Shown here in pieces: positions 53,002 to 61,365 of a stretch of 64,000 nucleotides of DNA; positions within the stretch are counted from its first letter, which is position 1, and each line of letters opens with the position of its first letter. The position numbers and the translations under genes are program-made. Origin of the DNA: a virus; IMG/VR virus record IMGVR_UViG_3300025576_000001, positions 1-64,000 of that record, one strand, 5' to 3'. Under the pieces are notes generated by a model. The model was not told where the DNA came from and did no database searches. It was given only the letters and a program-made list of their open reading frames with translations.

Positions 53002-54334
53002 TTGACATCCTCCGCCCCCTAAAGGAGGCGGATTCCCGGCTTCACAACCGAGCTTTTCTGCTTCAACTCTGACTGCACCGCATCCCGAAGAACACGATGG
53101 CTAACACCAGATCCGCAGACTTCACCCTTTCGGGCTACGTCGAGTCCCGACGCAAGGATATTCTTTGCTGCATTCTCGTCTCGGTCGTGCTGTACCTGGC
53201 AGCTTGGGCAAGTCCAGTTGCGCACGTCGAGAGGCAGGAGCTCGACGACGTGGCCACAAGCAGAGCATGTCTTGCTGCTGGGATAGAAGCGGTCGACCTT
53301 GATCAACTCCCGGCCGTACCAGGCGCACTTGTACGCGAGGACGGTCAGGAGCATGCGCCAAGCAGCGTCCGAGATTACTCGGGCGAGGCAGTGGTTGCGG
53401 ACCATTCCAGCGACGTTCAAATCCTCGACTACGATCACTTGGTTCTCGCGAACGATTCTTGTCGAGAGCTTTTGCATTTGGTCGCGGCGACGGTCTGCCA
53501 CCTTGGCATGGAGACGAGCGAGCTTGATTCGAGCTTTGTACCTGTTGCGGCTTCCTTTCTGTTTGCGGGCGAGCGCACGGGAGAGGCGCCGCTTGCGCTT
53601 CAACTCTCGGGCGTCGTGCTTGAGGTTGGGAATCTTCTCCCCCGTGGAGAGCGTGGCCAGGGCGTTGATGCCCAGGTCGATGCCAACGGCGGTCTTGAGC
53701 TTGGGCAGGTGCTTGACGGCCTTGTCCTCGCAGAGCAGGGACACGTGCCAGCGCTGGGCGGCGTCCAGCGATACCGAAGCACTGGACGGCTCCGCCCCCT
53801 CTGGCAACGGGCGGCTCCAGCGGATGTCGAGGGGCGCCTCCATCTTGGCCAAGGTGAGCTTGCCAGCGGCGAAGCGGAACCCGCTGCGGGTGAACTCGGC
53901 CGAGCCGCCCGCGCGCTTCTTCTTGAAGCTGGGGTACTTCGCACGCTTGGCGAAGAAATTGGAGTAGGCGGTTTGCAGATGCCGCAAGGTCTGCTGGACG
54001 GGGACGCTCGACACTTCGTTCAGGAAGGCAAGCTCGGGCTCCTTCTTCCAGCCCGTGAGCGCGGTGCTCTGGGCCGCGTACCCGATGGACTTTTTGCCCG
54101 AGGTCCACGCTTCACTGCGCTCGTGCAGGGCGCGGTTGTAGACGAGACGGCAACACCCGATGGTCCGACGAAGCAAGACCTCTTGCTCGGCGGTCGGGTA
54201 GAACCGGTACTTGAATCCTCTCAACGGCACACTTGCAGAATACGCTGTGCGCGTGTAAAGTCAACCATCGTAGCAACCGGACGGCGTTTCCTCTGCCAGC
54301 TAAAGCAGGCAGTATCCACGCCGGGGAGTATTTG
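53002..54334 (-). mobile_element. IS200/IS605-family (IS1341-type, tnpB only) element
   Basis: Subterminal hairpins with CTTTAG loops at both ends, TCAA right end, TCAT 5' of left end, no tnpA. Confidence 0.85.
53019..54230 (-). CDS. tnpB: RNA-guided endonuclease TnpB
   Basis: FKYRFYPT HTH, GIDLG / VEDL / DRDENAA RuvC triad intact, CSAC..CPSC zinc finger. Confidence 0.95.
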   Translation of the reverse strand: MPLRGFKYRFYPTAEQEVLLRRTIGCCRLVYNRALHERSEAWTSGKKSIGYAAQSTALTGWKKEPELAFLNEVSSVPVQQTLRHLQTAYSNFFAKRAKYPSFKKKRAGGSAEFTRSGFRFAAGKLTLAKMEAPLDIRWSRPLPEGAEPSSASVSLDAAQRWHVSLLCEDKAVKHLPKLKTAVGIDLGINALATLSTGEKIPNLKHDARELKRKRRLSRALARKQKGSRNRYKARIKLARLHAKVADRRRDQMQKLSTRIVRENQVIVVEDLNVAGMVRNHCLARVISDAAWRMLLTVLAYKCAWYGRELIKVDRFYPSSKTCSACGHVVELLPLDVRNWTCPSCQVQHDRDENAAKNILASGLDVARKGEVCGSGVSHRVLRDAVQSELKQKSSVVKPGIRLL

Positions 54335-57108: not shown

Positions 57109-57244
57109 TAGGACATTTTGAAGACGCGCTGCGCGGGTGTCAAGAAAGAACTTCTGATTCCTAAGTTCTGTCCCTATTCGGCCCATCCCTTGCAATGGCG
57201 ATTATGCACTTGACAACACCAGTTGCGAGGCGTAGTCTTGAGGC

Positions 57245-58222
57245 ATGACGACGAAGAACACAGACGGCAGCGACCTGACGCTGATGTCGGTGATGACGCG
57301 CTTTTCTACGGAAGAGGCAGCGCGTGACTACTTCGAGAGCATCCGCTGGCCCGAAGGCCCGACCTGCCCGCACTGTGGAAACGCTGACCAGGCACGCATC
57401 TACGCCCTCACTCCCGACGCTGGCTCCAAGGTCCGGCCGGGCCTCCGTAAGTGTGGCGACTGCCGCGACACCTTCACCGTGACCGTCGGAACCGTGATGG
57501 AGGATTCACACATCCCGTTGAACAAGTGGCTGATCGCCTTCTACATGATGTGTGCCAGCAAGACCCAAGTCTCGGCGTTGCAGCTCATGCGCCAGCTTGA
57601 GATCGGCTCCTACCACACCGCGCTTTTCCTCTGCCACCGCATCCGGTTCGCTCTCGCCGAGTTCTTCCCGACGCAGAAACTTGCTGGCACGGTTGAGGCT
57701 GATGAAACTTACCTGGGTGGTAAGATGCGCGGACGTGGACGAGGCTACGTGAAGAACAAGACCGCAGTCGTCTCGCTCGTCGAGCGTGATGGGAACGTGC
57801 GCTCGCGCGTGATCGGCTCCGACACCGTGACGGGCAAGGCGATCACGACCCTCCTGAAAGAGCACGTTGCCGAGACGGCCCATCTGAACACGGACGAGTC
57901 ACCCCTTTACACCCAGGTCGGAACTCACTTCGCATCCCACGACACCGTGAACCACAGCAAAGAAGAGTACGCCCGCAAGGACAAGGACACCGACCGCCTG
58001 GCGACCACCAACACGGTCGAGGGCTTCTTCGGAAACGCCAAGCGCAGCATCGATGGCACCCACCACAACATCAGCCGTCGGCGCACGGGCCTCTACATGG
58101 CCGAGATCGATCACAAGTACAACACGCGCAAGATGACCGATGGTGAGCGCACCGTGGTCGGCATCCGGCGCATGGAAGGGAAGCGGCTCTTTGCTCGCTC
58201 CCCGAAGCGGAAGGTCGGATAG
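57245..58222 (+). CDS. IS1595-family DDE transposase
   Basis: RWPEGPTCPHC zinc ribbon, VEADETY, TDE, TNTVEGFF. Confidence 0.95.
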   Translation: MTTKNTDGSDLTLMSVMTRFSTEEAARDYFESIRWPEGPTCPHCGNADQARIYALTPDAGSKVRPGLRKCGDCRDTFTVTVGTVMEDSHIPLNKWLIAFYMMCASKTQVSALQLMRQLEIGSYHTALFLCHRIRFALAEFFPTQKLAGTVEADETYLGGKMRGRGRGYVKNKTAVVSLVERDGNVRSRVIGSDTVTGKAITTLLKEHVAETAHLNTDESPLYTQVGTHFASHDTVNHSKEEYARKDKDTDRLATTNTVEGFFGNAKRSIDGTHHNISRRRTGLYMAEIDHKYNTRKMTDGERTVVGIRRMEGKRLFARSPKRKVG

Positions 58223-60634
58223 ATGGCAAAGCCAGCGCGCATAGCAGAGGTGCGAGCCGAGCACCTATTGACTGAGTTGCTCACGTCTCAGGGCTGGAAT
58301 GTAGAACATCCCCCGAAGGGTGAACTACTGCGCCAGGGGGAATACAGGGACCACCCTCACCTACTGGACATCTTCAAAGGCAAGAGCAAGTCGTCCGGCG
58401 GTGGCGACGGAATGCCCGAGGCTTTGCTTGTTGACGAGAATCTGCAACCACTGGCCGTGGTGGAGGCCAAGGGTTCCGCCAAGGATCTTCCCAAAGCCAT
58501 CGACGAGGTAACAAACAAGTACGGTACGTGGTGCGTGGAGGCCGGATACACTCCCATCGCAATCGCGCTTGCCGGAACCACCGAGACGTCATTTGTGTTG
58601 CAGGTGTTCAAGTGGTCCAAAAACAAATGGATCACCGTCACCTATGACGGCAACCCTATCAGTTGGATTCCCAACCGCACCGACCTGGAACACTTGCGGG
58701 CACCCAACACACTAGCCGAATTGCGCCCGTCCGTTCCTCCGGCAGCGGTACTCGCCACCCGTGCCGACGAGATCAACCGCCTGCTACGTGAGGCCAATAT
58801 CACCGATGCCCAGCGCCCGGCGATCGTTGGATCAATTATGCTGGCACTGTGGAAATCAAAAGGCCAAATTCGGCGCGATCCGGAGTACATCCTTGGGGAC
58901 ATCAACGAAGCGTCTTCCAGGGCATTTTGGACAGCCGAGAAAGCCAGCATCGCGGACAGCCTACGGGTGCCCATCGCGAACAAGGATCTGGCCAAGAGGG
59001 CGGTGCGCATCGTTTCCATCTTGGAGCGACTTGGCGTAACTGTCCTGAGCGCAGAAACGGACTACCTGGGCCAACTGTACGAGACTTTCTTCACTTACGT
59101 CGGAGGTAACACAATAGGACAGATTTTCACTCCAAGGCACATGACCGCTTTCATGGCGGAAATCGCGGACGTGCAGCGCGATGACGATGTGCTTGACCCG
59201 GCGTGTGGGACAGGGGGCTTTCTGATCGCTGCCATGAACCGCGTGCAGCGACGTGGCAAGTTGTCACGGGTGCAGATGATCGAAATTGTGAAGAAGCACT
59301 TGGTAGGCTTTGAAGTTGAGCCCACCACGGCGGCTCTCTGCATTGCCAATATGGTACTGCGTGGGGACGGCTCCACGCGGGTACATCCGGTTAGTTGTTT
59401 CACGTCGAAGAAGTTCGAGGTTGGTCAAGCCAATATCGTCTTGATGAACCCTCCATTTCCTCACGAGTCGACCGACAGACCTCCGGAGGAGTTCATTGCA
59501 AGGGCACTGGAAGGACTGCGAACCCGTGGCCTATTCGTGGCAATCGTTCCGCAGTCCCTCTTGGTCAAGCGTGAGAAGCAGCAGTGGCGCGACGAGATCC
59601 TGCAAAAGCATACACTTAGCGGAGTGATCACCTTGCCGGATGAACTCTTTCAACCGTTTGCGGCTGCCACCACGGCCATCCTAATCTTGGAAAAGGGCAT
59701 ACCGCACCCCAATGATCGACGTGTCTTTTTTGCCAGGGTGGAGAACGACGGATTCAAATTGAAGAAGGGTGTGCGCATTCCACGTGAGGGAGACGAATTG
59801 CCAACTATACTTGATGCCTATCGTAACAAAAAGACAATCCCTGGCATTAGCGGACTTTCAGTGCTTGATCGAGATCGGAGTTTCGCGCCGGGCGCCTATA
59901 TCCCTGCGCGGCCTTTGAGTGAAGCGGAAGTGACTGCGGGAGTTCTCGCACTCATCCGCAACCGCACCGCGTTCACGACCTTACACGCTGCCGAGATCGT
60001 TAATCTCAGACGTGAGGCCAGTTCGTACCGTGCGATGAAGAAGTCGCCCATCCCTAGCGCGCCCACTAGCAAAACGATCGGCGGCTACTTCGATATTTTC
60101 TACGGGCAGAAAAGCCTTCACAACAAGGAGAAGTTGCTATTGGGCACATCCCTCGTGATCTCGTCAAGCGGCGTGGACAATGGTTGCTACGGTTTCTTTG
60201 ATCTCGAAACCTTGATTGAGCCTCCGTTTGTCACCGTTCCTAGCACCGGAAGCATTGCGGTGGCTCATGTTCAAGAATTGCCGTGTGGGGTTACGGATGA
60301 CTGTTTGATCATGCTACCCAAAAAGGACGTGCCGCACGAGCTTCTCTATGTTGCAGCCGCAGTCATTCGGTCAGAGGCATGGAGGTTTAGCTACGGCAGG
60401 AAGGCGACTCCGGATCGCATATCTGGCTTCCCGTTACCTGTCGGCAAGGAGTTGATTGAGTGTGTGCGCGTTTACATGGAACGAGCGGCACAGGTGGAAC
60501 ACCTTGCACTAGAACATGCAGAGGATGCAATTGACGAACAGATAGCACGCAAACGACGGTTACAGGAGAAGGAGAATCCCGGAAGGCTCATTGGTGGAGA
60601 TATGTTAGAGAAAAGGCTGGCGGAGCTGGAATAG
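58223..60634 (+). CDS. fused restriction-modification enzyme (REase + N6-MTase + TRD) with antitoxin-like C-terminal tail
   Basis: PE...VVEAK nuclease, GQIFTP, DPACGTGGFL, NPPF, TRD ending RFSYGRK, tail EDAIDEQIARKR...LEKRLAELE. Confidence 0.85.
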   Translation: MAKPARIAEVRAEHLLTELLTSQGWNVEHPPKGELLRQGEYRDHPHLLDIFKGKSKSSGGGDGMPEALLVDENLQPLAVVEAKGSAKDLPKAIDEVTNKYGTWCVEAGYTPIAIALAGTTETSFVLQVFKWSKNKWITVTYDGNPISWIPNRTDLEHLRAPNTLAELRPSVPPAAVLATRADEINRLLREANITDAQRPAIVGSIMLALWKSKGQIRRDPEYILGDINEASSRAFWTAEKASIADSLRVPIANKDLAKRAVRIVSILERLGVTVLSAETDYLGQLYETFFTYVGGNTIGQIFTPRHMTAFMAEIADVQRDDDVLDPACGTGGFLIAAMNRVQRRGKLSRVQMIEIVKKHLVGFEVEPTTAALCIANMVLRGDGSTRVHPVSCFTSKKFEVGQANIVLMNPPFPHESTDRPPEEFIARALEGLRTRGLFVAIVPQSLLVKREKQQWRDEILQKHTLSGVITLPDELFQPFAAATTAILILEKGIPHPNDRRVFFARVENDGFKLKKGVRIPREGDELPTILDAYRNKKTIPGISGLSVLDRDRSFAPGAYIPARPLSEAEVTAGVLALIRNRTAFTTLHAAEIVNLRREASSYRAMKKSPIPSAPTSKTIGGYFDIFYGQKSLHNKEKLLLGTSLVISSSGVDNGCYGFFDLETLIEPPFVTVPSTGSIAVAHVQELPCGVTDDCLIMLPKKDVPHELLYVAAAVIRSEAWRFSYGRKATPDRISGFPLPVGKELIECVRVYMERAAQVEHLALEHAEDAIDEQIARKRRLQEKENPGRLIGGDMLEKRLAELE

Positions 60635-60643
60635 GCTACGACG

Positions 60644-60922
60644 ATGCCTTTAGTCGGTTTTTTGTGGGATCCGGAAGCCCTGGAACGATTAGCCGAGATT
60701 CCCGGCAAACAGAGAGCGCAGATCATAAAGAAAGCGCGGGCCTTAATAATAGATTCTCATCCTCCTGGGACAAAGAAATTGTCTGGCATGGAAGGAGAAG
60801 ACGGAGTACCGCTTTACCGCCAGCGTTCAGGTGATTATCGCATTCTCTACGAAGTCAGAACAAAACCACATACGATCATTGTCATTCGAGACGTTGACGA
60901 CCGAAAGGATGTGTACAGGTGA
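60644..60922 (+). CDS. RelE/ParE-family toxin
   Basis: HPPGTKKLSG..LYRQRSGDYRILYEV...DDRKDVYR. Confidence 0.9.
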   Translation: MPLVGFLWDPEALERLAEIPGKQRAQIIKKARALIIDSHPPGTKKLSGMEGEDGVPLYRQRSGDYRILYEVRTKPHTIIVIRDVDDRKDVYR

Positions 60923-61086
60923 AGCCAGGGAAGTCCAAGGGCAAGAAGGAACAGGACCAGGAGATGCGGATGCCGGCCAAGGAGTTTGACCGCATCATGG
61001 GGCGAGTCATGGGAGCACCGGAAACGCCGCGCAAACCGGAGGCCCTGGAGGACAAGCCGAAGGACCAGGAGGGTCAGAAGAAGTAA
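60919..61086 (+). CDS. small transposon-terminal protein
   Basis: MKPGKSK...MPAKEFDRIMGRVMGAP; GTGA overlap with the toxin. Confidence 0.5.
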   Translation: MKPGKSKGKKEQDQEMRMPAKEFDRIMGRVMGAPETPRKPEALEDKPKDQEGQKK

Positions 61087-61149
61087 CGCTGACCGTCAGC
61101 TAGGTATGAGGGCTGATTTTCCCCCAGTGTTGTGAAGTGCATACTCGCC

Positions 61150-61365
61150 GAACGCTCCGACGTGCTCGCCGTAGAGCTGCGCAAGCGTGAACGCGAGGTG
61201 ATAGCCGAATACCTTGGAAAACACCGTGGCCACGTCGGTGAGACGGCTACGGCGCTTGGCCTGACCAGGCGTGCCCTGGAATACAAGATGGAAGCCCACG
61301 GCCTGCGGGAAGAAGCCGCCAAGGCCCGCGAGCAAGCCGGCATCGGCGGTCCCCGGACGGCATAA
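61150..61365 (+). pseudogene. Fis-type HTH gene separated from its start by the transposon
   Basis: EREVIAEYL...GHVGETATALGLTRRALEYKM. Confidence 0.6.

Follow-up and report, generated by a model that had tools for sequence, protein, structure and literature searches.

To our knowledge, PrrC is the main worked example of a toxin that is kept latent by a restriction system. A broader hypothesis holds that immunity systems silence linked toxins through their own components, with no typical antitoxin being encoded (PMC3506569). Toxin genes embedded in restriction-modification (RM) loci have been described (PMC9296519), as have the restriction guardians PrrC and PARIS (PMC12707154), and toxin-antitoxin (TA) pairs are known parts of Tn3-family transposons (PMC7157771). 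Here we analyzed a stretch of viral DNA of 64,000 nucleotides (positions 1 to 64,000 of the IMG/VR record IMGVR_UViG_3300025576_000001; hereafter the window), in which an 803-aa RM enzyme is followed by a gene for a RelE-type toxin and by a small third gene, ORF3, all within a transposon of the IS1595 family. We propose, with a probability of roughly 0.7, that the last ~40 residues of the enzyme form a built-in antitoxin, a peptide that binds the downstream RelE-type mRNA interferase. Among the publications searched on TA modules in RM loci, on guardians and on Tn3-borne TA pairs, no antitoxin peptide fused to an RM enzyme was found.

The closest general parallel is offered by RelBE-like type II TA pairs (RelB/RelE and ParD/ParE, with ribbon-helix-helix (RHH) or Unstab_antitox antitoxins), with which the locus shares a toxin of RelE fold whose catalytic-type residues are conserved, an acidic partner segment whose coding sequence lies just upstream, a predicted helix-plus-strand wrap around the toxin, coupling of the genes, and decay that strikes the toxin first. 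It differs from these pairs in that the putative antitoxin consists of ~40 residues at the C-terminus of an 803-aa RM enzyme, that it has no DNA-binding antitoxin domain, and that a third small basic protein is attached to the pair. As in PrrC-EcoprrI and PARIS, a translation-targeting toxin is embedded in an RM unit and presumably kept latent by the RM protein, a likeness that fits the hypothesis of an immunity component acting as antitoxin (PMC3506569). However, the toxin has a RelE fold and is not an ABC-ATPase/HEPN anticodon nuclease like PrrC, and no PADLOC guardian model was matched. Whereas EcoprrI is a Type Ic HsdRMS system, the enzyme studied here is one chain, and in the structural model it would bind the toxin through an antitoxin-like peptide. 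In the Tn3-family TA transposons (PMC7157771), too, a TA module is built into the transposable unit, but the unit in the window belongs to the IS1595 family and its proposed antitoxin is a segment of the passenger RM enzyme itself. The locus would be a second, simpler and testable case after PrrC, with a textbook toxin and a 40-residue peptide that can be deleted or produced on its own, and for which relatives with no tail or with an alternative tail act as natural controls.

Linkage of the tail to RelE across related loci

A preliminary description of this DNA, made from the sequence alone, had reported an 803-aa fusion enzyme with a tail and a RelE gene 9 nt later, and these open reading frames (ORFs) were confirmed exactly. 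It had also suggested checking whether the tail is kept only where relE is adjacent. For this comparison we used 94 loci, 80 from species-representative genomes and 14 from viral contigs, with the window copy not counted; the tail was scored with a hidden Markov model (HMM) and RelE by iterative HMM searches. A tail of the window type was found at 40 of the 94 loci (29 genome and 11 viral). An intact RelE gene accompanied 35 of these tails, starting from 4 nt inside the end of the enzyme gene to 9 nt past its stop, and at the other five the adjacent RelE gene was decayed. It was split and separated by an inserted insertion sequence (IS) transposase in L014, reduced to N-terminal remnants in L020, L092 and L097, and truncated ahead of the C-terminal catalytic residues in L096. 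No RelE gene was found in any of 43 tail-less relatives, so that intact or remnant relE adjoined 40 of 40 tails and 0 of 43 enzymes lacking one, as the suggested check had anticipated. The decay ran in one direction only: toxins were lost next to surviving tails, and the reverse was never seen. A TA pair predicts this pattern, which would be expected if RelE is lethal in the absence of the tail.

To account for shared ancestry, a maximum-likelihood tree of 87 enzymes was examined from which the tail columns had been left out. The tail state required eight parsimony changes on this tree, seven of them forced by well-supported branches. Across seven independent contrasts, the presence of intact RelE changed the same way as the tail in five to six and the opposite way in none (sign test; median p = 0.031). 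From this co-variation, the tail is part of the RelE module and not of the enzyme core; by itself the co-variation is no demonstration of binding.

It was noted that four further loci (L035, L043, L046 and L061) have an acidic tail of another kind, which is rich in ED..ED (e.g. EDAEDLADALIAIDDP..SW.DVK) and in which Pfam recognized nothing useful. A divergent 87-aa PF05016 gene lies within 9 nt of this second tail type and there is no ORF3. Two changes on the tree are required to explain the second tail type, which may have arisen twice. At another locus inside the tailed clade (L010:6300-7090; protein P0094, with P0090 similar), the tail is replaced by an unrelated ~115-aa extension, and the gene immediately after it encodes a 155-aa DUF7689 protein (PF24738, 4e-31); the two may be a further exchangeable module of a tail plus its partner. 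A 910-aa metagenome protein, P0091, bears a C-terminal extension of ~100 aa that looks HicB-like by eye and has no Pfam match.

A predicted complex of the tail with RelE

The tail is laid out as a helix (residues 766-782), a strand-like segment (788-792) and a final helix. Among 26 tails, D768, D771 and L795 were invariant and R778 and G792 nearly so. The tail is acidic and RelE basic (Table 1), and this charge contrast was counted in favor of their pairing. No antitoxin-sized ORF was found between the transposase and RelE, which agrees with the preliminary description in that no separate antitoxin gene lies upstream.

We modeled RelE (26-row alignment) together with enzyme residues 740-803 (29-row alignment), alongside three controls. 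The pair reached an ipSAE of 0.73, compared with 0.02 for the best of the three controls; in the calibration, a value of 0.73 was attained by 58 of 80 solved complexes and by 2 of 110 mismatched pairs. At least 92% of the contacts agreed between runs, and the pLDDT of the partner was at least 83. In the predicted interface, which involves tail residues 763-803, helix 766-782 lies over RelE residues 59, 66, 68 and 80-90, and strand pairing joins tail residues 788-792 to RelE strand 5-11. Of the conserved positions, D771, R778, G792 and L795 of the tail and the invariant R59 and L68 of RelE all fall within this interface. A multimer prediction of the tail with RelE had been put forward earlier as a check, and in this prediction the two show the appearance of a RelE-antitoxin pair, with binding itself at the level of a model.

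The toxin half of the pair was assigned on several grounds. RelE matched PF05016 above the cut-off (E 5.4e-6) and the phrog_1213 'RelE-like toxin' family (3e-10). When a profile of 26 RelE orthologues was compared to the PDB, the matches were RelE toxins only, with ParE absent among them, and included Rv2866 from M. tuberculosis (1e-8), archaeal aRelE (1.6e-7) and E. coli RelE (7.5e-6), the last also in its ribosome-bound form. Across the 26 sequences R59, R61, R66, R87 and K88 were invariant and Y91 nearly so, and in the alignment these residues fall on the R.R/YR and HR..Y motifs of both Rv2866 and aRelE. We take them to be the counterparts of K52, K54, R61, R81 and Y87 of E. coli RelE. From its invariant catalytic-type residues, the toxin looks active.

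Antitoxin homology and the limits of the evidence

Several observations weigh against the tail being an antitoxin. The first concerns its similarity to known antitoxin families. PF09720, the 'putative addiction module component' (Unstab_antitox), was the only Pfam family that recurred among the 26 tails; it was matched by 5 of them, always at profile positions 27-53 of 54, with 14-18.5 bits and a best E of 0.0021, and every match was under the gathering cut-off of 23.3. The tail of the window itself had no Pfam match, and a tail profile run against PDB sequences retrieved no antitoxin, just coiled-coil noise. In one genome carrying the element, the next-closest RelE is paired with a canonical 77-aa RHH antitoxin, and with hhalign the tail was colinear with the C-terminal segment of that antitoxin at E 0.0058, with a probability of only 6%. 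When short free-standing proteins with the same tail were sought by shared words, two fragments only were retrieved. The preliminary description had likened the tail to the C-terminus of an antitoxin, and the PF09720 matches and the colinear alignment point weakly in this direction; all of them stay below significance, and the PDB search came back empty of antitoxins. The similarity is weakly consistent with antitoxin homology and is not decisive.

RHH, Phd, helix-turn-helix (HTH) and AbrB domains were not found by Pfam or NCBIfam in the enzyme or in ORF3, and autoregulation, if any, is therefore unaccounted for. The tail and relE are neighboring DNA that a single indel can move together, and their co-variation may be partly linkage. 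RelE-antitoxin complexes have already been solved, and the ipSAE of 0.73 possibly reflects in part a likeness to them. ORF3 is conserved directly downstream of RelE, which is the place of the antitoxin in higBA-type loci, and lability of the enzyme or of its tail has no support in these data. Contigs from RNA libraries also cannot prove transcription or a single transcript. Such contigs, from three metatranscriptome libraries of three studies, bridge the tail-RelE junction: two, at 60353-60865 and at 60564-60714, match the window without a mismatch, and a third, at 60596-60779, has 6 differences. In the richest RNA run most of the cover fell on RelE and ORF3 and, within the enzyme gene, on its 3' half. 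These contigs give a weak hint that the junction is expressed; gaps in the RNA-library cover and a DNA run with no empty site were given no evidential weight.

Proposed mechanism and alternative explanations

The preliminary description had gone as far as naming the RM enzyme itself as the antitoxin. The co-variation and the complex model against its controls favor this proposal, and the weak antitoxin homology and the conserved third component, ORF3, leave it less secure. From the anatomy, conservation, co-variation and predicted interface, all obtained in silico, we infer neutralization, release and a cellular outcome along the following lines. Each enzyme molecule would hold one RelE by means of its acidic tail, the tail helix covering the conserved Arg/Lys/Tyr face of the toxin and the short strand pairing with the N-terminal strand of RelE. 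The toxin would stay silent as long as the enzyme is made and intact. Loss of the element, a stop in its expression, or degradation or remodeling of the enzyme or its tail would free RelE, which would then cleave ribosome-bound mRNA and cause growth arrest. One outcome would be a host that is addicted to the transposon or prophage; another would be a suicide or dormancy back-up once restriction has been disabled, and the two are not exclusive. A one-chain RM enzyme cannot kill by restriction that outlasts methylation. Addiction is an attractive purpose because such an enzyme cannot outlive its own methylase, and because TA pairs are known in Tn3 transposons; the locus would then show how a one-chain RM enzyme could gain an addiction function.

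The alternative that survives best keeps the tail as antitoxin and differs just in trigger and purpose. In this reading, which the preliminary description had stressed, the enzyme would also be a sensor in guard or abortive infection, and an anti-restriction protein (a DNA mimic such as Ocr or ArdA) or phage-induced proteolysis would free RelE and so halt translation ahead of maturation of the invader. We regard this as possible but doubtful. It has precedents in PrrC-EcoprrI and PARIS, in which inhibition of restriction can trigger a translation toxin (PMC12707154; PMC3506569), the module travels with a defense enzyme, and in the model the tail directly continues the helix after the recognition domain, so that conformational coupling is conceivable. 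However, the sequence gives no trigger, the window copy sits in a phage and not in a host defense island, and the transposon also exists in a form that has no such module, which fits element maintenance equally well. Only tentatively can the locus be described as a widespread mobile defense module in which the RM enzyme serves as antitoxin and sensor, RelE is released when the enzyme is disabled or degraded (by anti-restriction proteins or through transposon loss), and ORF3 tunes the response. If true, this would be the first sequence-recognizable case of the proposed rule by which immunity proteins themselves are the antitoxins that counter linked toxins of suicide or dormancy.

A different arrangement would have ORF3 as the true antitoxin in a toxin-first, higBA-like order, with the tail merely a docking site or serving another role. 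The GTG start of ORF3 overlaps the RelE stop (GTGA) and the two genes are translationally coupled, with ATGA or GTGA overlaps in the orthologues. A profile of ORF3 retrieved 266 cluster representatives among 1.8 billion proteins, mostly of 45-60 aa, which makes it a narrow family of its own; some of the matches formed the C-terminal part of proteins of RelE size. ORF3 was matched by no family of Pfam, NCBIfam, PHROG or PADLOC, and in the Protein Atlas it fell into unnamed clusters only, with scores below 0.9. Judged from these sequences, ORF3 stands for a family of small basic proteins that is conserved and had no name before. In spite of its conservation and coupling to RelE, we consider a role as the true antitoxin unlikely, although it may conceivably act as a modulator. 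ORF3 is basic like RelE (pI 9.6 vs 9.3), and it is missing from the four elements with the second tail type and from L018 and L047, where a tail and RelE are nonetheless present. In 13 genome loci, mostly sphingomonad-like, it is fused in frame to RelE. An AlphaFold 2 (AF2) model of a natural RelE-ORF3 fusion rendered ORF3 as one low-confidence helix (pLDDT < 60) with no confident packing on RelE. As a separate observation, the 221-aa protein P0297 has the ORF3 motif behind an unrelated N-terminal domain.

It is quite improbable, in our assessment, that RelE is a permanent regulatory subunit acting on oligomerization, cleavage or expression and never released as a toxin. One-to-one coupled genes, a predicted tight interface and the lack of evidence for antitoxin lability would suit such a subunit, but the invariant catalytic-type residues of RelE speak for RNase activity being under selection, relatives that lack the tail function with no RelE, and decay is one-sided and begins with the toxin. 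Finally, that the tail is a mere extension of an HsdS-type conserved helix, linked to relE by an accident of DNA adjacency, is hardly credible: the monomer model does continue the long helix 742-784 into the tail and the tail has no significant antitoxin homology, but the association is complete over about eight tree changes, a second, unrelated acidic tail accompanies a second RelE type, the predicted complex scores far above the controls, and D771, R778, G792 and L795 fall in the modeled interface.

Domain structure of the RM enzyme

The fused-antitoxin reading places the peptide on an enzyme with three assigned or presumed modules (Table 1). The motif D71...E81-x-K83 of the nuclease-like domain was invariant in a family alignment of 29 sequences, and in the AF2 model of the enzyme (pLDDT 85.5) D71 ends one strand and E81/K83 lie in the next, within an N-terminal alpha/beta domain; the HSDR_N profile matched this domain only at E 0.04. 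In the methyltransferase (MTase) domain, the DPACGTGG and NPPF motifs and residues G329-G332 and N409-P411 were invariant in the same alignment, and HsdM structures in the PDB matched at 1e-17. PADLOC models of Type I MTases and Type IIG enzymes were also matched (REase_MTase_IIG 2.8e-44, for the MTase part only), and no known defense-system model in PADLOC was matched beyond this domain. At the C-terminus, the AF2 model contains a beta-rich domain followed by the long helix 742-784 and a last helix 793-802. Tail-less homologues end at about query residues 740-775.

A Foldseek search with the whole chain recovered Type I methylases, Type IIB BsaXI, and Type IIG BpuSI and DrdV (E 1e-14 to 1e-19). 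With BpuSI, DrdV and BsaXI the enzyme shares a putative N-terminal PD-ExK domain, a gamma-class N6A MTase and a presumed C-terminal recognition module in one chain, although sequence similarity to them is limited to the MTase domain. From its motifs and fold, the 803-aa protein appears to be a Type IIG-like single-chain RM enzyme with putative nuclease activity. We know of no characterized single-chain Type IIG or Type IIB enzyme that is linked to a RelE or has a tail for binding a toxin. The homologues of the enzyme, about 805-815 aa long, number more than 1000, and the tail motif was visible in most of the best 120. PLSDB and the cultured-phage collections held no full-length relative, with MTase-level matches only (≤34% identity).

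Transposon structure and phage setting

The transposase, enzyme, RelE and ORF3 genes follow one another on the + strand. These four genes and no others are bracketed by 23-nt inverted repeats, and together they appear to be one tightly coupled operon that forms the body of an IS1595-family transposon. The transposase is of the DDE_Tnp_IS1595 type with an N-terminal zinc ribbon, and its stop directly abuts the ATG of the enzyme gene; transposase homologues likewise abut the RM gene in most related loci. An inward-facing TTGACA hexamer lies inside the left terminal repeat. A promoter and terminator scan of the coding strand gave nothing exceeding chance.

Table 1. Features of the IS1595-family transposon and its passenger genes, in window coordinates
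Feature	Coordinates	Strand	Description
Transposon	57197..61149		3.95 kb
Left terminal inverted repeat	57197..57219	+	Motif GGCGATTATGCACTTGACAACAC; 23 nt, 91% complementary to right repeat
IS1595-family transposase, 325 aa	57245..58222	+	PF12762 4.9e-31, PF12760 3.7e-13, NF033547 2.1e-51
RM enzyme gene, 803 aa	58223..60634	+	ATG start, TAG stop
PD-(D/E)xK nuclease-like domain, residues 1 to about 165	58223..58717	+	Invariant D71, E81, K83
Gamma-class N6-adenine MTase domain, residues 278-543	59054..59851	+	PF02384 1.7e-34; motifs DPACGTGG, NPPF
Presumed target-recognition domain and following helix, residues about 595-762	60005..60508	+	Beta-rich domain in AF2 model
Acidic C-terminal tail, residues 763-803	60509..60631	+	Isoelectric point (pI) 5.3; proposed fused antitoxin peptide
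RelE-type toxin, 92 aa	60644..60922	+	ATG start, TGA stop; 9-nt spacer after enzyme stop; pI 9.3; PF05016, phrog_1213, RelE-only PDB matches, invariant residues
ORF3, 55 aa	60919..61086	+	pI 9.6; conserved; motif EMRM..EFD.IM..AL, then Lys/Arg-rich end
Right terminal inverted repeat	61127..61149	-	Pairs with left repeat; same repeat in relatives

The terminal repeat GGCGATTATGCACTTGAC.ACAC was found again in about 20 related loci from several phyla, delimiting units of 3.9-4.0 kb. Clear 8-bp target duplications were present in the relatives L075, L035 and L059; no target-site duplication was found for the window copy, whose flanks (57189-57196 and 61150-61157) share no word of 5 nt or longer. 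The zinc-ribbon transposase, the short terminal repeats and the 8-bp duplications in relatives are features shared with IS1595 'transporter IS' elements, and in 2009 Siguier and colleagues reportedly described IS1595 members with passenger genes. Three types of unit were distinguished. Tail-less units consist of the transposase and the enzyme only (L059, 3612 bp), elements with the second tail type add just their own RelE (L035), and those with the first tail type add RelE and usually ORF3 too. IS1595 transposons have carried the module into at least 6 phyla and into phages.

The host record of 76,216 bp is estimated to be 95% complete, and its terminase, portal and major head genes place the transposon in a phage. 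The inverted repeats, which are also found in relatives, and these phage genes bear out the earlier description of a transposon inside a phage. A TnpB / IS605 OrfB-type gene at 53019-54230 on the - strand (PF01385, PF07282, PF12323), adjoining the lysis region, is a second mobile element of the same phage. The right repeat of the transposon extends over the GTG start codon of a gene for a 77-aa Fis-type HTH protein (61132-61365; PF02954, 2.7e-9), a gene that the insertion may have truncated or may drive.

On another viral contig (L090:4974-7861), the enzyme is 95% and RelE about 98% identical to those of the window, and the 9-nt spacer is kept. ORF3 is just 37% identical there and no IS1595 transposase lies within 5 kb upstream, and comparison of the two sequences suggests a recombination breakpoint at the RelE/ORF3 border. 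At least 20 metagenome runs from peat and wetland, several of which may represent the source sample, contain the element of the window in nearly identical form; they date from 2017-2025 and belong to about 18 studies.

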